IMG/VR virus record: IMGVR_UViG_3300022902_000007 | Direction: 5' to 3' (one strand) | Origin: a virus | Length of the DNA: 64,000 nt | Program-made: the position numbers and the translations under genes | The notes under the pieces: model-generated | What the model was told of the DNA's origin: nothing | Seen by the model: only the letters and a program-made list of their open reading frames with translations | Database searches by the model: none | Shown: piece after piece, positions 15,430 to 41,934 of the stretch | Layout: every line of letters begins with the position of its first letter | Numbering within the stretch: position 1 is the stretch's first letter

Positions 15430-15681
15430 TTACTCCTTGAGACATTCCTCGTAGGGTTTGAGTTTCTGCGTCACCACATGCGGGAACTTGTGTTCGTTTG
15501 TCATGGCGAAGGCAGTATGAAGTGCAACCAGATAGTATATGTGCTCATGAAGCTCTGGATGATTCTCCAGCTCTTCTGCGATTGACAGTAGTCTGTTGGT
15601 GTGGAGGTTGCAGAGGTCGCCCCTGAAGAACACCCCTCTCCAGTCGTCTCCGAATACCATTGGGCCAGTTTGAGCTCTCAT
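15430..15681 (-). CDS. Hypothetical protein
   Basis: 'TGPMVFGDDWRGVFFRGD'. Confidence 0.5.
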   Translation of the reverse strand: MRAQTGPMVFGDDWRGVFFRGDLCNLHTNRLLSIAEELENHPELHEHIYYLVALHTAFAMTNEHKFPHVVTQKLKPYEECLKE

Positions 15682-16067
15682 TCGGAACCTGCCTCACCAA
15701 ACTCAAGACGGAACTTGCTTGGGTCCAGCTTTACTCCATATTCACTCTGGATATAGTCTGCCAACTCTTTGGCGATTTCACTTACCCTCATGTCTTTGTT
15801 GAGTTGGTTAGCTGCATCGATGCCGACGATACCAAAGCAGTCGTAGTTATTCGTGGCGACAATTCTTTTGTCAAGGGTGAAGATGCCATAGCCTCCGCAT
15901 CCTCCAGACCAAGACCACTTCGCCCACTCTTCAGAACCTTCTGTTGGTACTCCCAGTTTTTGCATTAGCTGGTCATACCTTATGAAGCCGACTTCACCTG
16001 CGGTGAATCCTACAATTACAAAGCTCGATGAGCTGCTGTTGCTGACGAAACTTGTTCTAATCTTCAT
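15678..16067 (-). CDS. FVSNSSSSSF-motif protein 1
   Basis: N-terminus MKIRTSFVSNSSSSSF. Confidence 0.75.
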   Translation of the reverse strand: MKIRTSFVSNSSSSSFVIVGFTAGEVGFIRYDQLMQKLGVPTEGSEEWAKWSWSGGCGGYGIFTLDKRIVATNNYDCFGIVGIDAANQLNKDMRVSEIAKELADYIQSEYGVKLDPSKFRLEFGEAGSE

Positions 16068-16069
16068 TT

Positions 16070-16372
16070 TTAGAAATCCACATCTACTGTGAAGCTATCG
16101 GGATCGTTCTTTCTGGCTGCACTGCAGAAGTCTTCAAGGGCTTCAATCTCTTCATCGTCCATTTCTGCGCACCAGGAATAGTCTGGGCTGTGCCAAGTGT
16201 CATATCCCATCATCTTGTGTCCGAGGATGGTCTGTGAGTACCAGTGCTCTTTGATTAGATCTCTGTTTTCAGGGCACTCTGATTCCAGAGTCTCTTGCCA
16301 CTTCTCTTCGGTGACGAACACGACAAAGGAAGAAGATGAACTGTTGCTTACAAAGTTGTGTCTGATTTTCAT
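16070..16372 (-). CDS. FVSNSSSSSF-motif protein 2
   Basis: N-terminus MKIRHNFVSNSSSSSF. Confidence 0.75.
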   Translation of the reverse strand: MKIRHNFVSNSSSSSFVVFVTEEKWQETLESECPENRDLIKEHWYSQTILGHKMMGYDTWHSPDYSWCAEMDDEEIEALEDFCSAARKNDPDSFTVDVDF

Positions 16373-16758
16373 CCGTAATATACCTCTGTGATTGCTTGGA
16401 TGTCTTTGATGGTGAAAGTGATTCCTCGGAGCTCAGTCAGCTCTTCGGCGATCTCTTCCTTATACCCTTTTAGTGTTTGGCCTGGCTTCATGCTGAATGG
16501 TGACTTCCCGATGTAAATGGTCGAGCCGTCCCACTCAGGGACATATGTAGACAAGGAATGGCCTATCCCTTGGTCAAGATACTCTTCGAGCCCTTGTTCA
16601 CATTCTCTTTCTTCTCCCTCCCGCTCATATTTGTAGACATCCCAGCCTGGCTTTGTGTCATTTAGATAGGCTTCGAATTCTTCTACATCCAAGGCAGACC
16701 CCCAGACTACGAACGAGCTGGAGCTTGAATTAGATACGAATGATTGACGTGTTTTCAT
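16369..16758 (-). CDS. FVSNSSSSSF-motif protein 3
   Basis: N-terminus MKTRQSFVSNSSSSSF. Confidence 0.75.
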   Translation of the reverse strand: MKTRQSFVSNSSSSSFVVWGSALDVEEFEAYLNDTKPGWDVYKYEREGEERECEQGLEEYLDQGIGHSLSTYVPEWDGSTIYIGKSPFSMKPGQTLKGYKEEIAEELTELRGITFTIKDIQAITEVYYG

Positions 16759-17486
16759 ACTGTTGTTACTCTTGAGATTAGATTGGTTGACATGGCTGCC
16801 TGTATTTGTGGCATGTAGTATTCAGTTAGATATCTGGTTGTGTTTATGTTGGGTCTTACGGGAATGGGCTGAACAGATTGCAGTCTATCTGCTGGCCCAT
16901 ATGGGGTCGTGAAAATTGGTCTATAGTCTGTTGGCACCCCGATAGTCCATGATGTTGCCGGCTGTCTGGCACGACAAGCAAGCCACTCTGCTTCTTTCCT
17001 ACACCATTCCTGTGTGTAGAGAGCTCCTCCGTGAATTGTATAGCGAGCTGAGACATTGATTGAAACTGTTATTGGAAGCTCCAGCCAAGCGTTTTCCCGA
17101 ATCCATGAGATTGATTGATTTCTGAGCTCGCCCCAAGTAGCCCCCAGCTCTTTTAGAATTCTTTTTGATTTGACGAGTGAAGGCTTTTTAGGGAGAGTCG
17201 GATGAGTGATATGAAGGCCACGTCTTTCAAGCCGATTTTTGTTTAGCGCCTGGGAAACATTAGTTGCATATGGGGTGGAGTCTACCATGGCTTTTAGTTC
17301 AATTGTCGTGGTTGTTGCTGTGGCCGAAGGTATAGAGGGATTGTCTTCATAAATCACAGGATATTCTTGGCCGAATGTGCTGAGGTTGTATGATATTCGG
17401 TCATTTGGAATTGGAATGATTCCGTCACCCCAGCAAGCCCTCTCGATCTCTCTTTTTATTCTGTCTACTTCAGTCGCAAGGCTCAT
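16755..17486 (-). CDS. Hypothetical protein
   Basis: 243 aa ORF in operon context. Confidence 0.5.
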   Translation of the reverse strand: MSLATEVDRIKREIERACWGDGIIPIPNDRISYNLSTFGQEYPVIYEDNPSIPSATATTTTIELKAMVDSTPYATNVSQALNKNRLERRGLHITHPTLPKKPSLVKSKRILKELGATWGELRNQSISWIRENAWLELPITVSINVSARYTIHGGALYTQEWCRKEAEWLACRARQPATSWTIGVPTDYRPIFTTPYGPADRLQSVQPIPVRPNINTTRYLTEYYMPQIQAAMSTNLISRVTTV

Positions 17487-17757
17487 CGTATAGCTCCAGG
17501 AATACTTCTACTTCCTCCCAGGTGCTGCAGAGGGGAAGGTCTTTTCTGATTTTGTACAGAGAGCGATACGGACCATCGCATCTCCAAAATCTTTTGTTGT
17601 GGTCTTCAATCCAGTAGGAGCCACCGTAGACACACATATGAGAATCATACACATAGGATTCCAAAGCAGGAGGAGAGCAGAGGCATGGCGATTGCCACAC
17701 CCCCACGATTCCTTCTTCAATCACATGTACGAAGACGAGTTTGGCTTTTCTACTCAT
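17470..17757 (-). CDS. Hypothetical protein
   Basis: ORF in operon context. Confidence 0.45.
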   Translation of the reverse strand: MSRKAKLVFVHVIEEGIVGVWQSPCLCSPPALESYVYDSHMCVYGGSYWIEDHNKRFWRCDGPYRSLYKIRKDLPLCSTWEEVEVFLELYDEPCD

Positions 17758-18022
17758 CTTCTTTTGCTGTAGTCTCTACAGTCTTCAACACTACGATGAC
17801 AGTAGTTTCTGCTTCACAGTAATAGCTGTATGGCTCAATCCCTATGCGCTGAGGTCGCTGAACACTCAAGATACATTTGTCACCTATAGCGATGTCTTTT
17901 ACATTCGGCCCTACAGATATTGCTTCATATATATCTGTCATGTGTGGCTGGTACAGAGGGCCTGATGCCTTCATATCTATTTTCTTGAAGACAACATTGC
18001 GTTGTGTTGCTTGTAGTTTCAT
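17750..18022 (-). CDS. Hypothetical protein, weakly GroES-like
   Basis: 'AISVGPNVKDIAIGDKC' resembles the GroES 'VAVGP..VKVGDKV'. Confidence 0.45.
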   Translation of the reverse strand: MKLQATQRNVVFKKIDMKASGPLYQPHMTDIYEAISVGPNVKDIAIGDKCILSVQRPQRIGIEPYSYYCEAETTVIVVLKTVETTAKEDE

Positions 18023-18030
18023 TCGTTTTC

Positions 18031-18633
18031 CTACCAGTTGAATGTTTGTAGATCTGAATATGTTGGGCCATCACAGTCCAGTTGGATCCAGTTACATTTC
18101 AGTTTGTGTGCGTAGTTGAGTAGTTTCACGAAGGCTTCCGAGAAGTCTGTCTCTGCTTCTTCATAGATGATTGGCTCGTCTACCCATACGAACCAGCCAT
18201 AGTAGAAGTCCGCCTTTAGAATTTCACAGAAGGGATCTTCCAGTAGCCTTCTGTCAGCTTCAGTAATATGAGCCGTGGAAACTGTCAGTACTTTTTGAAA
18301 TTCGTGATTAGTTTCTTTGTCTGGCATTTTGTTTCCTTTCGCGTCGAACCAATCGGCCCACAAGTCTTTGCAGCCACCAGAACATTTAGCTTTGTCACAT
18401 GCAACTTCGTAAAGGAATGCTCCTTCTGGATCGTATTCGTCTCGCTTCATGTTGGACTGCTTGCGTCCGCAGACGGGGCATCTGAAATGGATACGTCCTT
18501 CTTTCAGTGGCTTGAATCCCTTGGTCCTGAGTGCGAGAAGATGCTCTGGACACTGTCTCATTACGGCCCCTCGAACATTATCAATTCGGCACCTTTTAGG
18601 TTTGGGAAGCCGTGATAATAGATTAGTTGACAA
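18031..18633 (-). CDS. Zn-ribbon plus DUF5983-like domain protein
   Basis: 'CPVCG'; C-terminal 'VLTVSTAHITE...YGWFV...WIQLDCDGP'. Confidence 0.5.
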   Translation of the reverse strand: MSTNLLSRLPKPKRCRIDNVRGAVMRQCPEHLLALRTKGFKPLKEGRIHFRCPVCGRKQSNMKRDEYDPEGAFLYEVACDKAKCSGGCKDLWADWFDAKGNKMPDKETNHEFQKVLTVSTAHITEADRRLLEDPFCEILKADFYYGWFVWVDEPIIYEEAETDFSEAFVKLLNYAHKLKCNWIQLDCDGPTYSDLQTFNW

Positions 18634-18965
18634 TCAGTATCATCTGATTCGTTTGAAGGGTGACCAACATAGATGTATTTTCCACTTTCTATTGCTGCTA
18701 CCGCTTTGGGGTATTCTGCTTTTGCGGTATAGTCTTCATCATCATCCCAGAGGTTTTCTTCATACCAATCATTGAGTTGTTCTGTTGTGGTGATCTTCCT
18801 GTCGATCCAGTACTGCAGTTTTCTCTTCGACTGTTTTACAGGTCGCCAGGTCGGCTGATAGAACTTCAGCTTGACTGTTACTTCAATCTCTTCCTGCTTA
18901 GGATCTGCGGCGATAATAAAAGAGGATGATGAAGAATTGCTTACGAAGTTGTTACGAGTTTTCAT
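18561..18965 (-). CDS. FVSNSSSSSF-motif protein 4
   Basis: Start re-called at MKTRNNFVSNSSSSSF (TAATG coupling). Confidence 0.75.
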   Translation of the reverse strand: MKTRNNFVSNSSSSSFIIAADPKQEEIEVTVKLKFYQPTWRPVKQSKRKLQYWIDRKITTTEQLNDWYEENLWDDDEDYTAKAEYPKAVAAIESGKYIYVGHPSNESDDTDCQLIYYHGFPNLKGAELIMFEGP

Positions 18966-19297
18966 TACCAGTTCTCCTCGTGAGACCATACACCAGGCTG
19001 CTGTTGCATGTGGTCTCCAAATAGATCAATTGACGTCAGTACTTTTGAGTCGCCGTCGCTCCACTCTGGGTCATAGGTTGAATAACCACTACGGGCATAC
19101 CATTTAGTATGCACAAGTGCTGGCATCCCGAATACATGGTCTTCCAGCCACTCTGATTTTACTTCTTGTTCATGATCGACTCTATGAGGGAACTTCTCTA
19201 TGAAGCTCTTCCACCCCAGCTCAAGTTGTTCTGGAGTTACGATCACAACGAATGAAGACGAGCTGCTATTCGATACGAAGCTATGTCTTGTTTTCAT
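18965..19297 (-). CDS. FVSNSSSSSF-motif protein 5
   Basis: N-terminus MKTRHSFVSNSSSSSF. Confidence 0.75.
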   Translation of the reverse strand: MKTRHSFVSNSSSSSFVVIVTPEQLELGWKSFIEKFPHRVDHEQEVKSEWLEDHVFGMPALVHTKWYARSGYSTYDPEWSDGDSKVLTSIDLFGDHMQQQPGVWSHEENW

Positions 19298-19598
19298 TTG
19301 TTTTTGCCTTTGCTACTGAGTTTTGGAATAGAGCTGCTATCACTCTTTGGTACAGTCTCTTTGCCTGCGCTTCAGTCAAGAAGAAGTCATGGTGCTGAAT
19401 GTCTCCGTCTTCGCTTGTTCCAAGAGTTACCATGATTGGTTTGTCCCATGTTCTACACCCGATGCATCCGGAGTCATGAGCACTGATTGTATCTACCACT
19501 GGGTGTTCGTTTCTACAGCGAGCTCTTTCTCTGATGGTCATCTCGAACCTGGCCCATGATCTGGGAATCCCACTACCGGGACTCTGTTCGAGCAGCAC
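19281..19598 (-). CDS. Hypothetical protein
   Basis: ORF in operon context; likely start MTIRE. Confidence 0.45.
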   Translation of the reverse strand: MLLEQSPGSGIPRSWARFEMTIRERARCRNEHPVVDTISAHDSGCIGCRTWDKPIMVTLGTSEDGDIQHHDFFLTEAQAKRLYQRVIAALFQNSVAKAKTNENKT

Positions 19599-20206
19599 AT
19601 TCCACAGTCATTGCATGTAAGAGTCTCGTTATGGAAGGCTGGACAGACGACACCCTTTGAACCCTTGGGGGTTCTGAATACCCGGCCCTTGGTTTCGAGG
19701 TGGTCTGCCTTCAGTACTACTGAACACTTCCAGCCTTGAGAGATGGCTTCGTCACATTCTTCCAGAGAGCCACAGGAGGCTCTCAGAACGTCTTTCCACC
19801 AATAGGCTTGTCTCCACCCGTGTGTATAGCCAAGTATCTTTAGATTGGATGCTACGGCCTCTGAGAGGATGTCATGAGCAGTACCTGGACCCATTACTAC
19901 AGGGTCTCCGATGGCAGAGATTCTCAAGTACTTTGCCTTGGGGTGTCTCTTTTCGAGCGCGGCTGACAAAGAATACTTTTCAGGATTCTTCTTGTAGGCC
20001 TTCTGGGCACTTCTGGCTCCCATTGACGGGGTCCCGTAAGCATAGCAGGTGGGTTTGTTTGGGTCGCCGCCGTCTTTGACTGACAAGAATGGGCACAAGG
20101 CAGTCTTGCAAGAGTCTCTACATTCCTTCATCGTCGAGCCAACATAGGCGGTTGGAATCGGGCCGGTCTTTACGTTAGTCGGACGCGAGATCCATAATGT
20201 CTTCAT
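19538..20206 (-). CDS. Cys-rich Fe-S/radical-SAM-like phage protein (gp88-like)
   Basis: 'NVKTGPI', 'SC...CPF...CYA', 'LRISAIGDP', 'GYTH', 'VVCPA....TCNDCGMC...GFPDHG'. Confidence 0.55.
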   Translation of the reverse strand: MKTLWISRPTNVKTGPIPTAYVGSTMKECRDSCKTALCPFLSVKDGGDPNKPTCYAYGTPSMGARSAQKAYKKNPEKYSLSAALEKRHPKAKYLRISAIGDPVVMGPGTAHDILSEAVASNLKILGYTHGWRQAYWWKDVLRASCGSLEECDEAISQGWKCSVVLKADHLETKGRVFRTPKGSKGVVCPAFHNETLTCNDCGMCCSNRVPVVGFPDHGPGSR

Positions 20207-20209
20207 TTC

Positions 20210-20557
20210 TTATCTTCTTTCGAATGTTTTGTAGTCATACAGCCCCTGTTCGCTGGCCCAGTGGTCGTCTATCTGTTCAGTGATCCAGGAGTTTGATTTT
20301 TCTTTGTTCAGTTTTTCAATGTGTTCTTTACACACATAGATCATGTTGCTCATGTACATGCTGATCTCTGGCAGGTGCTCAGTGCCTGCAGTACTCTGAA
20401 GCCTTGTTAGATCGTCAACCATCTGGCCGAGGCTCTCTCTGAGGGACTCTACCTGATAACACTGGACCTGTTTTTTGTATAGAGTGGTGGCATCTTCTTC
20501 ACTGACGACAAACGAAGAAGAACTGCTGTTGGACACAAAACTATTGCGGATCTTCAT
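20210..20557 (-). CDS. FVSNSSSSSF-motif protein 6
   Basis: N-terminus MKIRNSFVSNSSSSSF. Confidence 0.75.
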   Translation of the reverse strand: MKIRNSFVSNSSSSSFVVSEEDATTLYKKQVQCYQVESLRESLGQMVDDLTRLQSTAGTEHLPEISMYMSNMIYVCKEHIEKLNKEKSNSWITEQIDDHWASEQGLYDYKTFERR

Positions 20558-20780
20558 TTCTTATTCCTTTCTTGCATAGTTCTCTTACATAGTCTCTGAC
20601 CTGGTATAGGAGTGCCTCCAGGGCTGCATCTACAGCATCGTCATGATTTGCTGGGACTTCCCAGTCTGCTATCTTTCCATGTTCGTATACAGGAAATCTG
20701 CCAAGTATGTCTACACAGCCATAGACAGTAGCAGCCTTGATTATTGATGCTTTTCTGTATTCCATTTGTGAGGTTGTCAT
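20541..20780 (-). CDS. Hypothetical protein
   Basis: ATGA coupling. Confidence 0.45.
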   Translation of the reverse strand: MTTSQMEYRKASIIKAATVYGCVDILGRFPVYEHGKIADWEVPANHDDAVDAALEALLYQVRDYVRELCKKGIRNEDPQ

Positions 20781-21067
20781 GACATTCCTTTGAGCATAGA
20801 TGGCATGTCACTTGTGTCTACTCCGAGGTAGAACTCAGAGGGGATTCTGTCATGTCCAGTGATGAATGGTATTATTGGAACTATCTTTACTTTTGGAAAC
20901 TTCATGCCAAGACGCTGCCACTTGTCATAGACATGCAGTGCCTGAATTTTGATAGTCTCCATTGTGTCTTCTCTGGCTGGCTGGCCTTCGAGTGTATTCA
21001 GTATCTCTTCCATGTCTGAAATGTATTCTTGAAACAGTCTGAGATATTCATTTACGGACATTCTCAT
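20777..21067 (-). CDS. Hypothetical protein
   Basis: ATGA coupling. Confidence 0.45.
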   Translation of the reverse strand: MRMSVNEYLRLFQEYISDMEEILNTLEGQPAREDTMETIKIQALHVYDKWQRLGMKFPKVKIVPIIPFITGHDRIPSEFYLGVDTSDMPSMLKGMS

Positions 21068-21297
21068 TTTGGTAGCTCTGGGTTTACTGGGATTTCGTCG
21101 TGTTCGTAATATTCGACCCAGGCGGGACCATAAGTAGCCAGCAATGATTTCTGTCGATATGGATACCGTGGATCTCTCGGCCTCTTGAGCTCAGATGCAC
21201 AGAGATAAGCTACTGCTGCTTCCGAAGTATCGAAGATCGCCACGACATGTTCATTTGGCTCCCATATCTGTTGTGCCTTTATACAATATCTGGTCAT
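21064..21297 (-). CDS. Hypothetical protein
   Basis: ORF in operon context. Confidence 0.45.
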   Translation of the reverse strand: MTRYCIKAQQIWEPNEHVVAIFDTSEAAVAYLCASELKRPRDPRYPYRQKSLLATYGPAWVEYYEHDEIPVNPELPK

Positions 21298-21298
21298 T

Positions 21299-21505
21299 TT
21301 ATCTTCCTATCCTTCGAGGTGGATCCATGAAGTCTACATCAGATCTCAAAACCTCTATTTCTTCTTTCAGCCATTTAATTTCTTGAACCAGGACACTAAT
21401 TGCATCAGTTAGGTCCATGATCTGTTCAGTAGAAGTTTTTTCAGAGTAGAGGCAATGATCTATGTCTTTTAGGTTGTTAATTTTCATTTCATTACTCTTT
21501 GCCAT
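21299..21505 (-). CDS. Hypothetical protein
   Basis: ORF in operon context. Confidence 0.45.
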   Translation of the reverse strand: MAKSNEMKINNLKDIDHCLYSEKTSTEQIMDLTDAISVLVQEIKWLKEEIEVLRSDVDFMDPPRRIGR

Positions 21506-21812
21506 TATCTGTCACTGAGGCCGCCACATATTCGTAAATCATAGGTGTATCTATGGTCCAGGTTCTTGGCGCTGACAGAATATGAATGTGATGAACTACT
21601 TGATTTTCGGATACGAGTTCAGCTTTTTCCCATTCCATTTTATCGAGGATGGTATATGTCAAGATCGTTCCTCTGATTTCTTTTAGGCCTCTGATCCATT
21701 CCACCGGTTCAGCTCTGAGAAAATCTTTAATCAAAAAGATTGGCTTGGGAGGATGCTCGTATTCTCTCCAAGTGATCTTCTCTACTTCCAGATCATCGAG
21801 ATAGTACTTCAT
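21492..21812 (-). CDS. Hypothetical protein, paralog of 22962-23297
   Basis: Start re-called at MKYYLDD (ATGA overlap); shared motifs. Confidence 0.55.
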   Translation of the reverse strand: MKYYLDDLEVEKITWREYEHPPKPIFLIKDFLRAEPVEWIRGLKEIRGTILTYTILDKMEWEKAELVSENQVVHHIHILSAPRTWTIDTPMIYEYVAASVTDNGKE

Positions 21813-22366
21813 TTCTTCTTTATCTCCACTATGAATGGGTTCTGCTTTATGCACTTGAAGCTCTGTGTCTCTTTTTGATAAGCCCACATGTATTCCAGTG
21901 TCTCCATGCACATCCCTATCTGAAACATTCCACGTCTGGGGTCGGACCAGTAGCCGTCATTGTGGCTAATCCATGGAGTTTTTGCCGAGGCGGCCCTTTG
22001 AATATCCCTCACAGTACGAGTGGTGATGAACAGACTTCCTCCGGATTTCACCTTCGACCAAGCCTCAGACAATACTGTCATTCGCTCAGTCATGGTGTCG
22101 ATTACATTCAGTACATATGTCATGAGCACTACATCGAACTCTCCTTCTGGCCAATCGGCGAATTCAGGAAAGTTTGGATCGTAGCCCGTTGCATCGATAT
22201 TACAACGCTTGTTTAGATATTGAGCATCTCTACCTCGGCCACAGCCGAAATCGAGAACTCTAAAAGAGCCCGGAATACAACGAGTGGCGAGCAAGTAACG
22301 GAGTGGGGCTGAAGGCTGTGAACGGCCAATCGCAGTATTCTCAGGACGGCAGATTATTTCGCTCAT
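21809..22366 (-). CDS. Class I SAM-dependent methyltransferase
   Basis: 'VLDFGCGRGRD', 'GYDP', 'FDVVLMTYVLNVI'. Confidence 0.85.
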   Translation of the reverse strand: MSEIICRPENTAIGRSQPSAPLRYLLATRCIPGSFRVLDFGCGRGRDAQYLNKRCNIDATGYDPNFPEFADWPEGEFDVVLMTYVLNVIDTMTERMTVLSEAWSKVKSGGSLFITTRTVRDIQRAASAKTPWISHNDGYWSDPRRGMFQIGMCMETLEYMWAYQKETQSFKCIKQNPFIVEIKKK

Positions 22367-22369
22367 CTT

Positions 22370-22723
22370 CTAACTCTCTGATCTTGTCTCTTGCTCTTTG
22401 GAGCTGCTTGTCGATCCTTTCTCTTTGTATAGGTGATGCAACATCGACACCATCATTTGTCCAGCGATATAAGCCGGATTGTAGATGTGGTGTAAGTCTT
22501 CGTTGTAACTGCACATTGAAGCTAATATTCCGGACCTTCTGCCAGACTGACTGATAAACATAAGTTTGGCTCCAAGCTTGTCGTTGAATACTGAGGATTT
22601 TGCCATGGCCGCACCGTCAAATCTATCCAGCTGAGGAAGGAACAGTTTTAGATACTCGACCACCTCGTTAGCCAAGTATTGCTCAGTTCTCGTGGTGTTT
22701 GCCACCGCATCTTTATTCATCAT
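22370..22723 (-). CDS. Hypothetical protein
   Basis: GGAG RBS. Confidence 0.5.
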   Translation of the reverse strand: MMNKDAVANTTRTEQYLANEVVEYLKLFLPQLDRFDGAAMAKSSVFNDKLGAKLMFISQSGRRSGILASMCSYNEDLHHIYNPAYIAGQMMVSMLHHLYKEKGSTSSSKEQETRSES

Positions 22724-22762
22724 ATTCTCCTGCTTCCATTACTATGTATGCTGCTTTGAACT

Positions 22763-22972
22763 TCATTTTATTTTATCCATTTTGATTTCACAGTCAGAAA
22801 TCCAATTGTTAAACATACGCTCAAGTACATAGCAGAGGGACGCAGAGTACGAGCATAGTGCCGACAGGGCCAGTAATGTGAGGGCCAAGAGCATCCATAG
22901 CAGTCTCCTTTTGTCCGTATTTATTATCAGCCAGAAACCAGACTTGAGGAAGTGGCCGAACTTACTCATCAT
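22763..22972 (-). CDS. Small membrane protein
   Basis: Hydrophobic stretch. Confidence 0.4.
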   Translation of the reverse strand: MMSKFGHFLKSGFWLIINTDKRRLLWMLLALTLLALSALCSYSASLCYVLERMFNNWISDCEIKMDKIK

Positions 22973-23297
22973 GGCTCCTTGTCTGATAGCTTACGCTGCT
23001 GGCTACGAATGTATAGCGATACATTCCAAAATCGTCGACTTCCGCTGGACCCAAAATCTCTATGTCACTGGACGTGATTCTCATGTCTATATTGTCAGTG
23101 TCATATACCTCTGCTCTCATGTATTTGTTTTTCTTCAAGACCTGGGCGGTCCTGATATTGCCTGCTATGCCCATGGCGAGGCGACGAGGAGCTGCCCCAC
23201 CCATTACATAGATGGGGGCCTTTCCTCTTTGTATCCACCAGTCAATTGAATAGACCTCTTCATCATCGAGCATATATCTTATGGTGTCTTGACTCAT
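22962..23297 (-). CDS. Hypothetical protein, paralog of 21492-21812 (possible tail-tube-like fold)
   Basis: 'KAPIYVMG', 'GIAGNI', 'YTFVA'. Confidence 0.55.
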   Translation of the reverse strand: MSQDTIRYMLDDEEVYSIDWWIQRGKAPIYVMGGAAPRRLAMGIAGNIRTAQVLKKNKYMRAEVYDTDNIDMRITSSDIEILGPAEVDDFGMYRYTFVASSVSYQTRSHDE

Positions 23298-23800
23298 TCG
23301 TCATATTCTCCTGCCTCTATTTCTATGTATCTACCATTCACGATCTTGACTACACCTGCTTCTGCTCTATCCATGAAGCTCTCGTACTCTGCCCATGCAT
23401 GGTCGTAGTCTATGGCGTGTGGGCATACGTTCTTTACAGATAGATCGAATACCAGATTGTGCTTCATGTTAGAGATCTTGTTCTTGGTGATGCACATGAG
23501 GAGCCTTGGTGAGATCCTTCCATCTTCCAAGTGGAAGATTTCTGGATTGCCAGGGCGATCATTTACATCATTGTAGATGTGGCAAATAGCGTTCGGACGA
23601 TACTGTAATGTACGAGAATCTGCTACGTCATCATCTGCAGGCAGTCTGAGAGTAGTGCCATCACGATCAATCTTTTTGTATTCGGCCGTGGCAAAGATAG
23701 TTACGTGGTTGTCTTCACAAGCGCCTTTGAGTCTGTCTGCAAGCATCTCGATCCGCCTGGATCTATCAAGCTTTTCGTAGTCTCTTAGGTTGAAAAGATT
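23294..23800 (-). CDS. DNA primase-helicase, exon 2 (DnaB-like C-terminus)
   Basis: 'IFATAEYKK', 'DVADSRTLQYRPN', 'ITKNK'; in frame with exon 1 after splicing. Confidence 0.85.
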   Translation of the reverse strand, partial: NLFNLRDYEKLDRSRRIEMLADRLKGACEDNHVTIFATAEYKKIDRDGTTLRLPADDDVADSRTLQYRPNAICHIYNDVNDRPGNPEIFHLEDGRISPRLLMCITKNKISNMKHNLVFDLSVKNVCPHAIDYDHAWAEYESFMDRAEAGVVKIVNGRYIEIEAGEYDE

Positions 23801-26039: not shown

Positions 26040-26049
26040 GATATTCTCC

Positions 26050-27297: not shown

Positions 27298-27304
27298 TTT
27301 GCCT

Positions 27305-33183: not shown

Positions 33184-33204
33184 TAATTTCCTCTCAGGTT
33201 AAAC

Positions 33205-33606: not shown

Positions 33607-33613
33607 GTGAAAA

Positions 33614-34357: not shown

Positions 34358-35385
34358 TGGCTATTATAGAACTTGGTGATGCAGGCGGGTCTGACGTCAT
34401 TTGGACCATGAGTGCCAACCTCGAACAAGACGATTACACTACAGTCAGTACTACACTACAGGCTGATGGAGCTGATACCGCTCCAGATTCTTGGGCACTG
34501 GCCAAGCCGACAGGCTCTGCTTCAGTTGTTGTTGGCGCTGGTCACACTGTTACTTTTGTTCCAGACTCGCCTGGAGTATATACTCTTGCTGCCAATGTCG
34601 GCACTGAGGTAGTCGTTCGAGTGGTCAAGATTGGAATCGAGATTGAAGGTGGTGCATGGGCGGAAGTCCTCGTTGACATGGACCTCCCCACCATAGGTGG
34701 GCTTGGGACTGTCGTCTTGGACGATAGCGGAGACGCTGACTATACTGTAGGCGGAATCACTCTACACTGTTCAACTCAAACAGCGGCAGATACTTTTGAA
34801 TGCAATCCCAATGGTATCGAAGTCACCAAGACCGGCAGCCAGGGGAAGGTCCGTATCACTTTGGGGATCACTGATGATTTTGATGTTGACCCAGAGGACA
34901 TAGTCTATTTCATAGTAGAAGCTGATCCGGATACTTCGAGTGGTGCGAATGATCTAATACGCGTAGTTACTCCCACCGGTGAAGAAGTTGCCTCTGGGGC
35001 TAACTCTTTGGGATGGATTGAGGCTCACCATGCTGATGGGGCTGGCGATTGGGACATCTATGATCAGCCTGGTAGCATCGGAGTTGGTGCCAAAGCTGCC
35101 GACCTGGTTGGCGCCACTCCAGCCAGGCTTCGATTTGTATTCAAAGTAGATAGATGTACTGGCACTGCACGTCTTGATACTACTGATAGTGCGGTAGCTC
35201 GGCCATCTGATGTGACACTGAGAACTGCTTTTGAAGTTACTCAGGGTACTAACCACGTATATGGCGCTCCCCCGACGCTTTATGACTTCCAGTCAAATAG
35301 TTATCATGGTCTCATCTATATCAATGTGGAAGACACATTGTATATCACTCGCATTGCGCTTTGGCGGATAAGACCCACGGCATAG
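34357..35385 (+). CDS. Putative virion protein (Ig/PKD-like plus beta-sandwich)
   Basis: 'SWALAKPTGS..VTFVPDSPGVYTL' PKD-like; acidic, Thr/Gly-rich. Confidence 0.55.
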   Translation: MAIIELGDAGGSDVIWTMSANLEQDDYTTVSTTLQADGADTAPDSWALAKPTGSASVVVGAGHTVTFVPDSPGVYTLAANVGTEVVVRVVKIGIEIEGGAWAEVLVDMDLPTIGGLGTVVLDDSGDADYTVGGITLHCSTQTAADTFECNPNGIEVTKTGSQGKVRITLGITDDFDVDPEDIVYFIVEADPDTSSGANDLIRVVTPTGEEVASGANSLGWIEAHHADGAGDWDIYDQPGSIGVGAKAADLVGATPARLRFVFKVDRCTGTARLDTTDSAVARPSDVTLRTAFEVTQGTNHVYGAPPTLYDFQSNSYHGLIYINVEDTLYITRIALWRIRPTA

Positions 35386-35607
35386 CTACAAGCCACGGAC
35401 CATTTTCTCAAGAGGCCCCATGTGGGCCTCACTGTTTATCAGCTTCTTGTATAGCTTGATGAATTCATCTGTATAGCTTTTGATATCGTCTGTTACATGA
35501 GCAGTCATCATGAACCCGAGTGCCGCTTTGTAATCAGTCTTGGAGCACTTGATACCAGTCTTTCTGCGGAAGTAGTCATGGCTATATCTAAATTGTTCAG
35601 GTCTCAT
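35386..35607 (-). CDS. Hypothetical protein
   Basis: ATGA-coupled to the dnaE N-terminal gene. Confidence 0.5.
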   Translation of the reverse strand: MRPEQFRYSHDYFRRKTGIKCSKTDYKAALGFMMTAHVTDDIKSYTDEFIKLYKKLINSEAHMGPLEKMVRGL

Positions 35608-36920
35608 TTTAGTTTCTCCTTCATCTGTCGTGTAAAGATTAGTGGGATGGCACTACGGCCGAAGTTCAGGAAGCGTTCGAAGTATAGTCCGTATTTGATT
35701 GGATCAATTTGAGTGATGCCTGTGGCCCAACAGACAAGAGAACCTGAGCTCGAACCCCGGCCCGGACCCACGATGATCGATCTTTTATTTGCTTCTTCAA
35801 TGATCTGGGCTACTATGAGAATGTAGTCAGATACGTTCATCTTCTTCATGATATGAAGCTCGTAGTCGAGTCTGCGTCTGTACTCCACCGGCGGTATTTC
35901 TCCATTGAAGCGGTCCATTAGGCCATGTTTCGCTTGAATCTCAAGCCAGTTCCAAGCAGTCTCATCCTTCGGGAGATCCGTGTAGGACGGCAGTCTGTTC
36001 ATCCTGTCTTCATAGTAACTGTCTGAGTCAACCATGCCTGCAATCAGAACTGTATTTTCGATGGCCTCGTATGGGATGGCAGTATTCTGACAATGCTTCC
36101 ACATCCAATCATGGGAGGCAAGGTGGCAATCGAGTCCTCTAAAACTGAATCTCTTCTCAGAGCTTACTGGAGAATTTGTTTGAATGCACAGCGCCATATC
36201 GTGGAGTTTTTGATGGCTTCGTTTTGCATAGTGAACGTCGTTGGTAATGATCAGCGGAAGCCCTGTGTCTCCTGCGATTTCTATCAGTGCTGCATTCACA
36301 ATGAGTTGCTCAGTTGAGTAGAGCTCACCGTTAATTTCAGTGATGTCTTCTCTGCCAGCCCATGTGTAGTTTCCAATTTCCAATTCAATCATGAATCTAT
36401 TTGAGAATATTTCTGCATATTCTTCAATCAGTTTCTTTGCTCTTGGGATTTCGCCCGCGAGGATGAGCTGGGAGGGCTTGGAGCCCAGGCAGGCGGACGA
36501 GGCACAGAGCCCATCAGCATGGTCAGCAAGCATTCCATTATCTAAACGTGGCTTGTGGTACATACCCTCTGTCCAAGCACGAGAACTGAGTTTGTTCAGA
36601 TTCTTTAGGCCAGTGTTGTCGAGGGCTATTAGCAAGAGGTGATAGTGAAGCTTTCCAAGTTCATCTTTTTCTTTGACTGTTGCTCCATTCGGAGCCCAGT
36701 ATGCTTCGAGGCCGAGGATCGGTTTAACGCCCTCCTCGTTACAGGCCTTGAAGAACTTGTAGTTGCCTGCTACCGAGCCGTGGTCTGTTATTGCGATAGC
36801 AGTTTGGCCTCGGCTTTTGGCGATCTTTGGTAAGTCTTTTATCTTGTTGATGCCATCCAAGAGACTCATCTCGCTATGAGCATGCAGGTGGACGAAATTA
36901 CTGTTCATCTTTCCATCCAT
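35604..36920 (-). CDS. dnaE: DNA polymerase III alpha, N-terminal gene (PHP domain plus start of palm)
   Basis: 'HLHAHSEMSLLDG', 'ITDHG', 'KPILGLEAY', 'TNDVHY', 'GPGRGSSSGSLV', 'FERFLN', then stop. Confidence 0.9.
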   Translation of the reverse strand: MDGKMNSNFVHLHAHSEMSLLDGINKIKDLPKIAKSRGQTAIAITDHGSVAGNYKFFKACNEEGVKPILGLEAYWAPNGATVKEKDELGKLHYHLLLIALDNTGLKNLNKLSSRAWTEGMYHKPRLDNGMLADHADGLCASSACLGSKPSQLILAGEIPRAKKLIEEYAEIFSNRFMIELEIGNYTWAGREDITEINGELYSTEQLIVNAALIEIAGDTGLPLIITNDVHYAKRSHQKLHDMALCIQTNSPVSSEKRFSFRGLDCHLASHDWMWKHCQNTAIPYEAIENTVLIAGMVDSDSYYEDRMNRLPSYTDLPKDETAWNWLEIQAKHGLMDRFNGEIPPVEYRRRLDYELHIMKKMNVSDYILIVAQIIEEANKRSIIVGPGRGSSSGSLVCWATGITQIDPIKYGLYFERFLNFGRSAIPLIFTRQMKEKLK

Positions 36921-37089
36921 ATGGCTTTTCTATGAACAGTTTTGCGACATAAAACGATTCGTAATATCCCTCATCGAATATCTCTACACAGAGGTGACAT
37001 CCAGGGTACTGTTTACATAATTGTTTGAAATATTCAATTCCATTGCCGTCCAAAGTTAGGCTGTCAGGTTGTATCTCTATCCGCTTCAT
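36898..37089 (-). CDS. Hypothetical protein
   Basis: GGAG RBS. Confidence 0.4.
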   Translation of the reverse strand: MKRIEIQPDSLTLDGNGIEYFKQLCKQYPGCHLCVEIFDEGYYESFYVAKLFIEKPYGWKDEQ

Positions 37090-37393
37090 AATAATCTCCT
37101 TCGATCAGCCATTCGGAGCTCGACAAGATAGGTGAGACCAGGCACTTCTTACAAGAATACCCTCGGTAGGATACTCCCCAGGGGCTGCTGAAGACGCCTG
37201 CTGGAATATTCAGACAGTCAGAGCAGTAGACATACCCACAGTCTCGACATGGCCCTTGATCGGTCACTAGTTCGTAAGTGTCATCTTCATGTCTGGTCTG
37301 TATTAGCTTTCCGCATTCAGCGCAGAACAGCTCTTCTTTAATCTTCTTCTTCATCAGTGGTTTCCGTTTCTTCCAGTATTGTGAGATCGCCAA
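37064..37393 (-). CDS. Zn-finger protein
   Basis: Four CxxC motifs. Confidence 0.5.
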   Translation of the reverse strand: MAISQYWKKRKPLMKKKIKEELFCAECGKLIQTRHEDDTYELVTDQGPCRDCGYVYCSDCLNIPAGVFSSPWGVSYRGYSCKKCLVSPILSSSEWLIEGDYYEADRDTT

Positions 37394-38396
37394 TGCACTT
37401 ACTCTTCAGTTTTTCGTATTCTTCTGGGGAAGCTTCGAGATGTGCTTTCAGTCCGAGTCTTCCGCCAATACAGATTGTGAGGTCTGTCTCTGGGTCCTTG
37501 ACAGCGCTGCCAGCAAAACGGATGATGCCCTTCTGCTTTGCGCACTCAATCAGGTCGAGATATGGGTCAACGCCCCTGCCACAAACGAATTGCATTGCGG
37601 CAGTTTTTCCTTGCATCGCAAACTTGTTTTTAACCACTCTCACTTCCATTGCCAGGGTGTCGCCTGTCTTCGAGGCAGGCTTCGATTTGACTCTGAATCT
37701 GAGGGAAGCATAGTAAGGAAGCCCATTTCCGCCGGAAGTTGTCTCTGGGTTGCCGTACATCACACCGATTTTGTATCTGATTTGGTTGATAAACACAAAG
37801 AATACTCTGGAGTCTGTACAGATCTTGGACAGCTCACGAGTCGCTCTGGACATCTTCCTCGGAAGTGTAGCCACTGAGATTTCGTCGATATCTTTCTTGA
37901 CGTCTTCTTCAGTTTGGGCAGCATCGACTGAATCAAACACTACACAGCCGATATCACCTGACTTACACAGATTGATTGATAACTGGAGCGCTTGCTCAGC
38001 AGTATTCGGACGCACATAGAGAACCTTCTCAGTATCTATCCCGAACCCAGCCATAAAGTCAGTGTCGGTAGTCCTCTCCAGATCGAAGAAAGCCGCGATC
38101 CGTTCTTCTCGCTCTTCAATTAAAGCTCGTGCCGTCTCGTGCCTCTGCCAAGCAGCTATGAACTGTAAAGACAAAGAGGTCTTTCCGCCGCTGGTGGGCC
38201 CAAATATTTCAATCATTCTATCGAGGGGCAGTCCTCCTGAGCCAATGGCAGCATCCAGGGTTACGGACCCAGAAGGAAACGTTTCTGAGCTTTCAACAGC
38301 ATTGCCCATGCCATATACGAGGTCTTCATTCTTCTTCTTGAAGGCGGCCAGCACAGCGTCTGCACCTTTGAGCCCTGTTACTTTCTTGATTCCCAT
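37338..38396 (-). CDS. recA: RecA recombinase
   Basis: 'GSVTLDAAIGSGGLP', 'EIFGPTSGGKT', 'FDSV', 'FINQIRYKIGVMYGNPETTSGGNGLPYYASLR', 'VVKNK'. Confidence 0.95.
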   Translation of the reverse strand: MGIKKVTGLKGADAVLAAFKKKNEDLVYGMGNAVESSETFPSGSVTLDAAIGSGGLPLDRMIEIFGPTSGGKTSLSLQFIAAWQRHETARALIEEREERIAAFFDLERTTDTDFMAGFGIDTEKVLYVRPNTAEQALQLSINLCKSGDIGCVVFDSVDAAQTEEDVKKDIDEISVATLPRKMSRATRELSKICTDSRVFFVFINQIRYKIGVMYGNPETTSGGNGLPYYASLRFRVKSKPASKTGDTLAMEVRVVKNKFAMQGKTAAMQFVCGRGVDPYLDLIECAKQKGIIRFAGSAVKDPETDLTICIGGRLGLKAHLEASPEEYEKLKSKCIGDLTILEETETTDEEED

Positions 38397-39182
38397 TTAG
38401 TTTGTAAACCTTTCTCTGAATGCTTTGAGCAGATTGTCTTTGTGTTCTGGAATCTGTTCGAGATTCCACCAGAAGTTTAGTTCAATTAGCTCTTTGTATA
38501 ATCTTTTGTCAGAGCTATGAGAGGATTTCGGTGGGGGAGGCAAAGAGTATCCGTTGTCTTGAGAGCGGAAGATATCTTTGTTCATTTTTTCGCTGGTCGG
38601 GAAGCAGTGCATTTGCCATATCCCACCGCCGAATTCTTTTATTACTTCGACTTCTTTTTCATATCTAACATCGTCAATGAGAAACACGCCTCTCTTTCCG
38701 GGTTCTGGCTCAAGCGTGGCGATGAGCTCTCTCATGTAGTTGGCAAAGTAATCAGGATGAATTGACTTGAAGAAGTCACCAGTCATCTGCATGATTTGTC
38801 TTGGAGACTTTTCACGTAGCCGCTGGATAGGGGCTTCTTTTTCCAGTGCTGTCATCTCAGGTGTGATGGAGAGGTTGAGGAAGGTGTCTGCAAATTTGCG
38901 AATTGGTTCTGCAAAGTTGTGAGTGACGATTGTATATGTGTCTTTTGGCAGTGCTTCTGTGAGAAGTCTCGCTGATAAGCTCTTACCCATACGACGATAG
39001 CCTGCAAAGCCAATGACGATATGCCTGTTAAGATTCCATCTCTGCATACCTTCTATTGTTCTCTGGATGTATCCAGCTGTATCAATATCCGGGTAAGGCT
39101 CAACTGATATTTGCTTCCACTTTGGTGGGAGCCTATTACTGACATCCGTGATGTCGTACTGTACTTCGGTTCCATCAAACAT
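38397..39182 (-). CDS. Deoxynucleoside monophosphate kinase
   Basis: 'IGFAGYRRMGKS', 'NFAEPI', 'PRQIMQ..GD', 'IDDVRYEKE', 'HSSD'. Confidence 0.8.
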   Translation of the reverse strand: MFDGTEVQYDITDVSNRLPPKWKQISVEPYPDIDTAGYIQRTIEGMQRWNLNRHIVIGFAGYRRMGKSLSARLLTEALPKDTYTIVTHNFAEPIRKFADTFLNLSITPEMTALEKEAPIQRLREKSPRQIMQMTGDFFKSIHPDYFANYMRELIATLEPEPGKRGVFLIDDVRYEKEVEVIKEFGGGIWQMHCFPTSEKMNKDIFRSQDNGYSLPPPPKSSHSSDKRLYKELIELNFWWNLEQIPEHKDNLLKAFRERFTN

Positions 39183-39373
39183 TAGTCTTCATCCAGTGTG
39201 GCGTATGCCTTTTGTCCGTCATACATCCCTTCTGATGGGAAGTATTCGCCTGCCTCGGTCGTATACAGAGCCTTTTGGACGGCCTCTTCTTCTGATTCGG
39301 CCATGATTGTATATCTATAGAATGGATAGTCGCATGGGATGATTACTTCGTACTCATTCATTGTTGTCTCCAA
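39182..39373 (-). CDS. Hypothetical protein
   Basis: 'AESEEEA' phage small-protein motif. Confidence 0.45.
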   Translation of the reverse strand: METTMNEYEVIIPCDYPFYRYTIMAESEEEAVQKALYTTEAGEYFPSEGMYDGQKAYATLDED

Positions 39374-39947
39374 TTCTTACTGTCATGAATTCTACTCTCC
39401 CAGCATTGACCGCATCTCTGATGCGGCGTTGTACCTTGGAGAGCTGTGACTTGTTTGTCTTCACATCGATTAGAACTATTTTGTTTATCTCGTTTGCTTC
39501 ACCGTCGTTAACAGCTCCACAGCCGTCAAAGCAGATTATGTCTACTGGCTTACCAATGAAACGCATGTCCCCTGGTTCGAGTCCTTCAATCATGAATGGA
39601 GCGAGGTTCTCTGCTGCTTGACCTCTCAAGACTGCGCGTGATTGGTCGAGAGTCTTCTTCCTTATCTTTTTTGTTTCTTCTTGCTTCCACAGCTCCATCA
39701 GTCCACGAGCTTCTTCTCGGGCCACGGTTTCAACTTCTGCTTTGTCGACTAATAGCTCTTGGTATTTGGAAGACAATAGATCCATGTCACCAGAGAGCTG
39801 TGTACTCTTGCCTGTCAATTCGTGAATCTGCTGCTTGGCGTCCGATACGAACAATTCCAGGCGGGTGATGTCTTCTTGTTTGCTTTTGTGTATTGCATAT
39901 GCAATGATTAAAGAGATGACTGCGAGGCCAATAAATAGGAATTCCAT
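39354..39947 (-). CDS. Membrane-anchored endonuclease related to archaeal Holliday junction resolvase
   Basis: N-terminal TM, coiled coil, 'SRAVLRGQAAENLAP', 'FIGKPVDIICFDG', 'DVKT...LSKVQRRIRDAV'. Confidence 0.8.
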   Translation of the reverse strand: MEFLFIGLAVISLIIAYAIHKSKQEDITRLELFVSDAKQQIHELTGKSTQLSGDMDLLSSKYQELLVDKAEVETVAREEARGLMELWKQEETKKIRKKTLDQSRAVLRGQAAENLAPFMIEGLEPGDMRFIGKPVDIICFDGCGAVNDGEANEINKIVLIDVKTNKSQLSKVQRRIRDAVNAGRVEFMTVRIGDNNE

Positions 39948-39958
39948 GGAGTTGACTC

Positions 39959-40375
39959 ATGATAACTGAAGTTTTGGTTAATGGACATTTTGCAACGATG
40001 CATGCTGACCATGTTAGATTGTTTGAATTTGCCAGTAGGTTTGGTCTCGTGACAGTCGCCATCAACAATGATGAATGGGCTGAAAGGAAATATGGTAAGG
40101 GCTTTGTTTCTCTCACAGACCGTGCCTATCTTCTGAGGTCATGTAGATATGTACACAATGTAGTGGTGTTCAATGAAGAGACACCAGCTGAGCTAATACT
40201 CCAGCTCAAGCCCCGAGTCATAGTCAAAGGCCCCGACTATAAAGACAAAGAATTGTCTGAACAGTGGGCTATTGATAGAGTAAGGGCCAAGCTGGTATTC
40301 AGGCCTGGTGAGAATGTGCATTCAAGTAGTCAGATACTTCAGGTGGCACAGAGGAAGCGTCCTCCTCTTTACTAA
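39959..40375 (+). CDS. Cytidylyl/adenylyltransferase (HldE domain II/TagD-like)
   Basis: 'NGHFATMHADH', 'VAINND', 'FNEETP', 'VKGPDY', 'HSSS'. Confidence 0.8.
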   Translation: MITEVLVNGHFATMHADHVRLFEFASRFGLVTVAINNDEWAERKYGKGFVSLTDRAYLLRSCRYVHNVVVFNEETPAELILQLKPRVIVKGPDYKDKELSEQWAIDRVRAKLVFRPGENVHSSSQILQVAQRKRPPLY

Positions 40376-40703
40376 AGCAGTGCCAAGAAGCTCTCTTCAT
40401 TATGTATGAAGACTCAGTTTGCTCGGGCACCCAAGGCCCGAGCCAGGCAATGAGCTCGTCTCTATAGAATAGAAAGCTTCCTTTGTCACTAAAGGCAGAA
40501 TGAGTTTCTACACGGCAGTCTCTTGCAAACTCTTCAAACGGAGTGTTCCAGTTCTCTTGGAGAGCCCTCATCCATCGCTGTGTTAGGATTTGCTCGTAGA
40601 ACTCATTTTCTGTCTTGGCCATCTTTGAAGTCATGTCAATGATCTTGTCATTGAAGAAGTTCTCGCAGGACGGACTAATTGTCAGAGTGGATGTGTTATC
40701 CAT
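40299..40703 (-). CDS. Hypothetical protein
   Basis: TAATG coupling. Confidence 0.4.
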   Translation of the reverse strand: MDNTSTLTISPSCENFFNDKIIDMTSKMAKTENEFYEQILTQRWMRALQENWNTPFEEFARDCRVETHSAFSDKGSFLFYRDELIAWLGPWVPEQTESSYIMKRASWHCFSKEEDASSVPPEVSDYLNAHSHQA

Positions 40704-41083
40704 TAGCTGTAGTCCATTCCAGCATAGATCTTTGGAACCTTCTTCGTGCCGAATACCTTTTCTGACATTTGGATCAGACTTGAAATTGTATTTGCATTGA
40801 TTGGGCCATAACTATGCGTGTCATATTCGTAACCGGTGCCACCTATACCAATATAATTGCCGTCACAGTCGCTGTCAGAGTAGAAAGTAAGATCCTGGCT
40901 ACTAAACAGCTCATCCCATTTGTCGTACCAACTCCATTCATACTCTTCATGAGATGCTGGTTTTTGTTCAAAGATCTCACAGAGCCCTACATAGTTGTCG
41001 TAGGTGGTCCCTGCTATTTTATAGCCGAGAATCACGAATGAAGAAGAGCTACTGTTGCTTACGAAACCATTGCGTTGTTTCAT
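40703..41083 (-). CDS. FVSNSSSSSF-motif protein 7
   Basis: N-terminus MKQRNGFVSNSSSSSF. Confidence 0.75.
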   Translation of the reverse strand: MKQRNGFVSNSSSSSFVILGYKIAGTTYDNYVGLCEIFEQKPASHEEYEWSWYDKWDELFSSQDLTFYSDSDCDGNYIGIGGTGYEYDTHSYGPINANTISSLIQMSEKVFGTKKVPKIYAGMDYS

Positions 41084-41084
41084 T

Positions 41085-41423
41085 TTAACCTCTGTGAATT
41101 CTATATGCTTTGAACTTGTGTTCGATTAGATCATGTAGCTGATATGGGATGCTGTTGTCATAAGCTGATTCAATGACTATTTGGCCCGGAGTGATTGATT
41201 GCCAGAGCGGACCCCAGCTTGCCTCCATCTCCTCTACATATTCTTCTGTAGCCTCGAATGGCAGCAGGAACATGTCCAGAAACTGCTGGTTCTTCATGGA
41301 CCATTCAGTCCAGAAGTCTGTAAGAGATATTAAAAGCTCTGCTACTTCTTTTTTTGTATGCCCCGAGTCGCAAATGAATGAACTGGAGGAGCTATTTGAT
41401 ACAAACGATTTACGGACTTTCAT
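41085..41423 (-). CDS. FVSNSSSSSF-motif protein 8
   Basis: Start re-called at MKVRKSFVSNSSSSSF (GGAG upstream). Confidence 0.75.
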   Translation of the reverse strand: MKVRKSFVSNSSSSSFICDSGHTKKEVAELLISLTDFWTEWSMKNQQFLDMFLLPFEATEEYVEEMEASWGPLWQSITPGQIVIESAYDNSIPYQLHDLIEHKFKAYRIHRG

Positions 41424-41424
41424 G

Positions 41425-41934
41425 TCACTCTCCATTCACTATTTCGACTATGCCCTGGTCTTTGAGTCTCATGAGCTCGGTGTGCAAGATTTCATCGCTA
41501 TACTCTATTCTAATGTAGGCTGATTCTTTGTCTTTCAGAGCTTCTTTGAATCTGTCGATTTCGGCCTTGTCGGAAGCTGCCCATCTTACATAATCTGCAA
41601 GACGTTCTGCATTCGTAAGCCTGGAGGGCCGATTGCTCCATGGGTTACTTGCCCTCTCATCAGGCTGAAGTCTTTTCGTCTCTTCTATACGCCTGAGGCT
41701 TGTTTCGTAGTCCTTTTCCAGATCTTTTAGATAATCTTCGCCCGTGCCGTGCCGTCCAGAGCTATCTGAGTGACTGTACTGTGTATTCTCCAGCATCTGC
41801 AGGAGGTTGTGGCCTCCTCCGACTGGGTGGCCACAGTGAGGACACTTTCGCTCCTTGTCAAAGGTCCCAGGCTCGTAAGCAATCACGTAAGAGCTGCTTG
41901 AACTATTGCTAACGAATGAATGTCTAATCTTCAT
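41425..41934 (-). CDS. FVSNSSSSSF-motif protein 9 (with CPHC)
   Basis: N-terminus MKIRHSFVSNSSSSSY. Confidence 0.75.
   Translation of the reverse strand: MKIRHSFVSNSSSSSYVIAYEPGTFDKERKCPHCGHPVGGGHNLLQMLENTQYSHSDSSGRHGTGEDYLKDLEKDYETSLRRIEETKRLQPDERASNPWSNRPSRLTNAERLADYVRWAASDKAEIDRFKEALKDKESAYIRIEYSDEILHTELMRLKDQGIVEIVNGE

Follow-up and report, generated by a model that had tools for sequence, protein, structure and literature searches.

A peptide of 16 residues stands at the extreme N-terminus of nine small proteins encoded in IMG/VR virus record IMGVR_UViG_3300022902_000007, an uncultured phage of which a stretch of 64,000 nucleotides (nt; hereafter, the window) was analyzed. Comparison of sequences suggests that this peptide, termed the tag, is a portable docking handle, and probably also a modification handle, of a radical S-adenosylmethionine (SAM) enzyme acting on a diversified set of client proteins, in which case the nine genes would be clients of a two-part phage system; the probability of this reading is put at about two-thirds. 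The tag is carried at residue 1 by bodies that are mostly unrelated, in other phages it is linked near-obligately to one family of radical SAM enzymes, and the same pair occurs in bacterial operons headed by a STAND (signal transduction ATPase with numerous domains) NTPase. The original prediction, made from the window alone, had named four candidate mechanisms, namely a modification leader, a docking strand on a common partner, a packaging or ejection signal, and self-cleavage between Asn and Ser; the former two have been retained, with the partner identified as the radical SAM enzyme by two-way gene linkage, and the latter two are unsupported.

In the window, the tag forms the N-terminus of nine open reading frames (ORFs), all on the minus strand, with the sequence M-K-x-R-x-x-F-V-S-N-S-S-S-S-S-(F/Y). 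Exactly nine sites in the window fit a degenerate DNA pattern encoding FVSNSSSSS(F/Y), where none are expected (100 shuffles), and a hidden Markov model (HMM) of the tag run against all six frames gave the same number of matches (E 3e-16 to 3e-12; next-best E 0.04). Residues M1, K2, R4, F7, V8, S9, N10 and S11 to S15 are identical in all nine proteins. Both AGY and TCN codons are found at each Ser position, and Arg4 is encoded by AGA and CGY; this mixture indicates that selection acts on the peptide, as originally predicted. The nine genes announced by that prediction were thus recovered by ORFs, DNA pattern and HMM alike, after two starts had been corrected so that the motif falls at residue 1 (gene 4, ATG at 18965 instead of 18989; gene 8, ATG at 41423 instead of 41435). 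The genes lie in groups of 3, 2+1 and 3, as had been described, and neighbors within a group overlap by 1–4 nt or are separated by 1–2 nt; the stop of gene 3 and the start of gene 2, for example, share 4 nt. In all nine genes, therefore, the peptide begins at residue 1, the bodies are small, acidic and varied, and the arrangement is a same-strand tandem array, the type example of the system being ORF169c of coliphage RB43, which encodes the enzyme, with ORF116c and ORF121c.

Behind the tag, the nine bodies have isoelectric points (pI) of 4.1–5.4 and net charges of -6 to -16, in agreement with the acidic character first noted, and aromatic residues make up 7–18% of them, compared with a median of 9% in the other ORFs of the window. 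They are spread over at least seven BLAST groups. The claim that the bodies are unrelated is accurate at the level of sequence profiles, except that genes 1 and 3 belong to one body family, which gene 7 resembles by eye. AlphaFold models were obtained for genes 1 and 4, each with a mean predicted local distance difference test (pLDDT) score of 81.8. In the former, residues 1–11 score below 50 and the first strand comprises residues 13–21; in the latter, residues 1–14 are coil, with residues 5–10 below 50, and the topology is unlike that of gene 1. The order of the secondary structure elements differs between the two models, both of which have a loose arm made of the first ~11–14 residues and a first core strand that begins inside the Ser run. 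Hence there is no common full-length fold, and residues 1–12 or 1–14 form a low-confidence arm outside the fold, which is what would be expected of a portable N-terminal tag on a diversified family and not of a buried core. The same observations led to the rejection of the idea that the motif is the catalytic strand-loop of one shared fold of the HAD, P-loop or palm-like type, since the two confident models differ, residues 1–12 lie outside the fold, and the bodies are unrelated by hhalign. Searches with the gene 1 and gene 4 bodies returned no significant match to a known fold (Foldseek against PDB; VIA-align wide, best Z 3.5 and 3.9; BFVD), and only viral hypothetical clusters were found in the ESM Atlas.

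A motif search combined with an inspection of gene neighborhoods, as had been proposed, revealed that the tag is widespread and that it is linked to a radical SAM enzyme. When residues 1–40 were used as a profile, 28,490 clusters at 50% identity were matched (E <= 1e-3) among 1.84 billion representatives, and with few exceptions the top 150 clusters have the match at residue 1. The string FVSNSSSS is encoded by 583 IMG/VR stretches. A total of 279 distinct complete tagged proteins with a median length of 130 amino acids (aa) were collected; among the 341 collected ORFs that begin with Met, this residue precedes the Asn by exactly nine positions in 313, and tagged genes form tandem arrays of up to nine. 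Among 269 collected proteins of at least 60 aa, the body has a pI below 5.5 in 92% of cases, and BLAST separates these proteins into 85 body groups. When the tag was removed and the 15 largest groups were compared profile to profile (hhalign), no pair exceeded a probability of 45% and most were below 10%, confirming at this larger scale that a constant peptide is attached to mostly unrelated bodies. Cultured members include RB43 ORF116c and ORF121c, which carry the same peptide as the nine genes, and homologous DNA is present in 177 records of the RB43/RB16/KP27 group. All nine proteins match the PHROG family phrog_7397, of unknown function (E 2e-5 to 0.02), over profile positions 1 to ~20 (up to 83 in three cases), that is, essentially over the tag only; neither Pfam nor NCBIfam contains a model for the tag or for the bodies. 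Single tagged proteins are uninformative as queries in tblastn or word-index searches, because masking removes the Ser run and too little similarity is left between the bodies. Some peculiarities were recorded among the family members. The top tag-profile matches bear two tag matches, some of them internal (e.g., residues 144–176 and 180–212), probably as a result of gene fusion or of read-through between tandem genes. A number of tagged genes are located on 249-kb and 60-kb contigs binned as a Nanoarchaeota metagenome-assembled genome, which may be mis-binned contigs of huge phages. In RB43, the two tagged genes flank ORF119c, whose product (739 aa) is annotated with a similarity to Synechocystis sll0103.

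Many tag loci contain a gene of ~350 aa with the motif PEILDxEIS...CxxxCxFCYKxN, of which 14 full copies were aligned (alignment A3, 50% mean identity), revealing further invariant Cys residues. Members of this family, which comprises at least 3,689 clusters at 90% identity, match the Pfam model Radical_SAM, and a SPASM domain (PF13186) is detected in homologues; together with the conserved downstream Cys residues, these features describe, in genomes other than the one studied here, a radical SAM core followed by a C-terminal auxiliary iron-sulfur domain. In whole-record searches, the enzyme is present in 5/5 and 45/50 tag-bearing records; in records at least 90% complete it is found in 3/3 and 19/19 (22 IMG/VR records), and the five tag-bearing records that lack it are only 20–46% complete. 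RB43 also has the enzyme, at positions 92712–93858 of NC_007023.1, where the gene is split into ORF169c and ORF168c; the split is a frameshift or a sequencing error, as the resequenced genome (HE858210) has one intact frame. As a background, the enzyme occurs in 172 of 50,697 cultured phage records, all from the same group that bears tags. The linkage also holds in the reverse direction: at loci picked by enzyme homology alone, tagged ORFs are found within 6 kb in 75 of 80 cases, all 277 tags at these loci are on the strand of the enzyme, and at least two of the five tag-less loci bear a variant tag with His7. No third conserved gene was found near the 80 enzyme loci, no other family being present at more than nine of them, and a protease or transporter conserved at these loci was likewise absent. 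The enzyme is not necessarily close to every tag cluster, since the two are 20–24 kb apart in RB43, and distances of as much as 112 kb occur in other genomes.

Among solved proteins, the enzyme is closest in sequence to SkfB, a peptide maturase (E 4e-5), and the near-misses of the enzyme in NCBIfam are peptide or protein maturases; no curated family cut-off is reached. Some database sources label homologues of the enzyme "sulfatase maturation enzyme AslB". Variation within the tag follows the enzyme at one position: the tag has Thr9 in 8/8 records of a divergent enzyme clade and in 0/241 tags of the main clade, a co-variation that is suggestive.

The same pair was identified in bacteria. On three alphaproteobacterial plasmids, from Agrobacterium, Rhodobacter and Rhizobium, a SMEK-NACHT STAND NTPase, a tagged protein and a radical SAM/SPASM homologue are encoded in that order in one operon; the tagged protein begins MKIKxDFVSNSSSTSF, and SPASM is recognized in one of the plasmid enzymes. 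On two of the three plasmids, a conserved acidic protein of 120 aa is encoded between the STAND gene and the tagged gene. In operon layout, this arrangement resembles the KpAvs2-Avap1-Avap2 operon of Klebsiella pneumoniae, in which a radical SAM gene and a small protein also lie beside a STAND NTPase; there, the STAND protein is bound by the small Avap2, and activity against some phages depends on the radical SAM gene (Avap1) (Bechon et al., 2024, PMC11564622). DUF6375, the family matched by Avap2 in HHpred, gave no match to the tagged proteins. The Avs2 operon also differs from the present window in having an adjacent STAND gene: no STAND or NACHT protein was seen in 23 ORFs of at least 90 aa plus the nine tagged genes, with smaller and unscanned ORFs not excluded.

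On these grounds, the following scheme is proposed. One radical SAM enzyme with an auxiliary iron-sulfur domain of the SPASM/twitch type would serve many small acidic proteins of unrelated fold, each of which would present a flexible N-terminal peptide of the form M-K-(I/V/T)-R-x-(G/S)-F-V-(S/T)-N-S-S-x-x-S-(F/Y). This peptide would be the docking site of the enzyme and, most likely, also the site of covalent modification, and the variable bodies would supply the individual activities, probably in early host take-over or counter-defense. We infer each of these steps, that is, the binding of the tag by the enzyme, its modification, the residue concerned and the roles of the clients. As to the residue, position 9 is a guess, prompted by two features: it follows the invariant Phe7 at a distance of two residues, and no other position was seen to change with the enzyme clade.

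Several points weigh against this scheme. There is no radical SAM gene within the window: the single CxxxCxxC match is spurious, belonging to a plus-strand ORF that overlaps the gene for the primase, and 19 enzyme sequences used as tblastn queries against the window gave nothing better than E 0.25. Because some tags lie directly beside the enzyme in 94% of enzyme loci, three clusters without an enzyme are unusual if the genome has no fourth one elsewhere. The enzyme gene of this phage must therefore be outside the window or absent; its presence in the genome is judged somewhat the better bet, since tag-bearing genomes that are near-complete have it without exception, which is weighed against the rarity of enzymes with no tags beside them. 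In addition, the co-variation at position 9 represents a single evolutionary event and so counts for little, and a low pLDDT at the N-terminus is common in models and by itself is weak evidence for a flexible arm.

The absence of the enzyme from the window invites the explanation that the tag works independently of it in this phage, the genome being without the enzyme and the tag functioning by itself or together with a host factor; it might, for instance, be a decoy or a ligand of host STAND-type defense modules in which the same tag is used. The 64 kb around three client clusters are indeed free of the enzyme, bacteria place the same tag beside STAND NTPases, and the tag is retained in relatives that are ~70% identical at the neighboring DUF7227 gene. 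This explanation is considered unlikely, given that the enzyme is found in all 22 near-complete tag-bearing genomes and in RB43, and that it can be as far as 20–112 kb from a tag cluster. An adaptor function, in which the tag would dock the clients on the enzyme without being modified while the bodies bring different targets, of the host or the phage, to the enzyme or act as its regulators, draws on the same linkage data as the docking-and-modification scheme and is given an equally low standing. The high diversity of the bodies is as expected of target-binding modules, and Avap2 binds its STAND partner in an operon that also encodes the radical SAM protein Avap1 (PMC11564622), a possible parallel; on the other hand, the nearest characterized relatives of the enzyme modify the peptide that they bind, and the invariant Asn-Ser-Ser and the co-variation at position 9 are more suggestive of a site of reaction than of docking alone. 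It is very improbable that the tag is an ordinary structural element, such as a strand for self-association or folding, with an indirect linkage to the enzyme. The first core strand of both models is indeed made of residues 13–21, yet the most conserved residues, 1–12, lie outside the fold in two different topologies, an identical peptide is retained on dozens of unrelated bodies, and the two-way gene linkage is near-obligate.

The packaging, ejection and self-cleavage mechanisms of the original prediction were also weighed. In phage T4, the internal proteins IPI–IPIII, which are otherwise unrelated, small and encoded in tandem, share a short N-terminal capsid-targeting sequence, and the nine proteins resemble them in this respect. 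The resemblance is in logic only: T4-type targeting involves cleavage by the prohead protease after ~10 residues and a virion-module context, whereas the tag contains no acidic residue and so no Glu-containing prohead-protease site, its partner is a different one, and the genes are surrounded by replication and early genes instead of virion genes. No protease, portal, scaffold or other third gene co-occurs with the tag, and the bacterial plasmid operons that carry it have no virion. A capsid address or Asn|Ser self-cleavage thus appears highly unlikely. The notion of a tiny C-terminal split-intein piece, prompted by the similarity of GFVSN|S to intein block G, was dropped because the sole conserved partner is a radical SAM enzyme, no direct search for a HINT domain having been made.

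Among characterized systems, the proposed pair is reminiscent of radical SAM maturases with SPASM/twitch domains and their substrates (SkfB/SkfA, CteB/CteA, SuiB/SuiA, PqqE/PqqA and MftC/MftA), in which one enzyme with an auxiliary cluster likewise accompanies substrates known by a conserved N-terminal peptide. It differs from these maturases of peptides that are ribosomally synthesized and then modified post-translationally (RiPPs) in that the substrates would be whole folded proteins of 100–300 aa with many unrelated bodies, in that the reaction probably takes place on the conserved peptide itself instead of on a core downstream of it, and in that no protease, transporter or separate recognition protein is linked to the 80 enzyme loci. 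The nine putative clients, at 100–169 aa and with a pLDDT of 82 in the two models, are folded proteins and not short precursors composed of a leader and a released core. A second likeness is to the anaerobic sulfatase-maturating enzymes (anSME/AtsB), radical SAM/SPASM enzymes whose target is a Ser or Cys within a short motif close to the N-terminus of full-length sulfatases; here, by contrast, the sulfatase motif (C/S)-x-(P/A)-x-R is not in the tag, the clients have no sulfatase domain, and the enzyme is not an anSME member by NCBIfam cut-offs. In the FxSxx-COOH/FxsB systems, a radical SAM/SPASM enzyme is also associated with fast-diverging small proteins that keep a short F-x-S motif, in NTPase-based conflict systems, and the motif is C-terminal and is released by a linked zincin metallopeptidase (Kaur et al., 2020, PMC7159879); the present motif, by contrast, begins the protein at residue 1 and has no linked peptidase.

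The window represents a replication and early region, encoding a split DnaE, a primase-helicase, a ribonucleotide reductase, a ligase, a RecA-like protein and ThyX; the nine tagged genes are listed in Table 1. Between tagged genes 6 and 5 lies a gene (19538–20206, minus strand) for a Cys-rich DUF7227 protein of 222 aa with eight conserved Cys residues and YTHGW and GDP motifs, from a family that is widespread in marine phages, mycobacteriophages, Pseudomonas phages and cyanophages. DUF7227 was considered, and rejected, as the general maturase partner of the tag: by hhalign it does not resemble the enzyme family (probability 0.7%), it extends to mycobacteriophages, Pseudomonas phages and cyanophages, and 76 of 80 metagenome DUF7227 loci are without a tag, the other four being from close relatives of this phage. 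Another gene (18031–18633, minus strand) overlaps the end of tagged gene 4; its product, of 200 aa, has a DUF5983 domain at the C-terminus (E 2e-19) and a CxxC...CxxC region at the N-terminus. Directly downstream of the third tag cluster is a lone plus-strand gene (39959–40375), the 3′-end of which overlaps a minus-strand ORF (40299–40703); its 138-aa product resembles by eye a small nucleotidyltransferase of the cytidylyltransferase-like type.

Table 1. Genes carrying the N-terminal tag in the 64,000-nt window ("comp" denotes a body family or group).
Gene	Coordinates	Strand	Length (aa)	N-terminus	Remarks
Tagged gene 1	15678..16067	-	129	MKIRTSFVSNSSSSSF	body family comp 0 (34 members)
Tagged gene 2	16070..16372	-	100	MKIRHNFVSNSSSSSF	singleton body, pI 4.1
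Tagged gene 3	16369..16758	-	129	MKTRQSFVSNSSSSSF	body family comp 0
Tagged gene 4	18561..18965	-	134	MKTRNNFVSNSSSSSF	ATG 18965; comp 4 (22 members)
Tagged gene 5	18965..19297	-	110	MKTRHSFVSNSSSSSF	singleton body
Tagged gene 6	20210..20557	-	115	MKIRNSFVSNSSSSSF	singleton body
Tagged gene 7	40703..41083	-	126	MKQRNGFVSNSSSSSF	BLAST singleton; by-eye alignment with comp 0
Tagged gene 8	41085..41423	-	112	MKVRKSFVSNSSSSSF	ATG 41423; comp 13 (4 members)
Tagged gene 9	41425..41934	-	169	MKIRHSFVSNSSSSSY	CPHCGH zinc-ribbon-like motif in body

Searches of the literature with the motif strings, with phage radical SAM/SPASM enzyme, and with RB43 and radical SAM returned nothing relevant, and no paper describing the tag–enzyme pair was found. 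With at least 28,490 clusters at 50% identity, the family marked by the tag ranks among the larger uncharacterized ones of phages, and it is tied to a single family of enzymes. A wider proposal, rated somewhat short of even odds, is that a handle of 16 residues lets one enzyme modify dozens of unrelated whole proteins covalently, in a way not described before, so that the logic of RiPPs would be applied to folded effectors; phages would use it early or in counter-defense, bacterial immune operons of the STAND/NLR-like (nucleotide-binding leucine-rich-repeat-like) type would mirror this use, and the nine clients may even function in the absence of an enzyme encoded by the phage, by using or jamming one of the host. 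Since the pair is found behind STAND NTPases in bacteria, it is probably part of the phage-host arms race. The system is carried by the laboratory coliphages RB43 and RB16 and by many Klebsiella and Enterobacter phages, and is therefore directly testable. If the enzyme modifies the tag, the pair would constitute a new kind of post-translational protein modification system with a new rule of enzyme-substrate recognition, and any tagged protein would be a predicted client.

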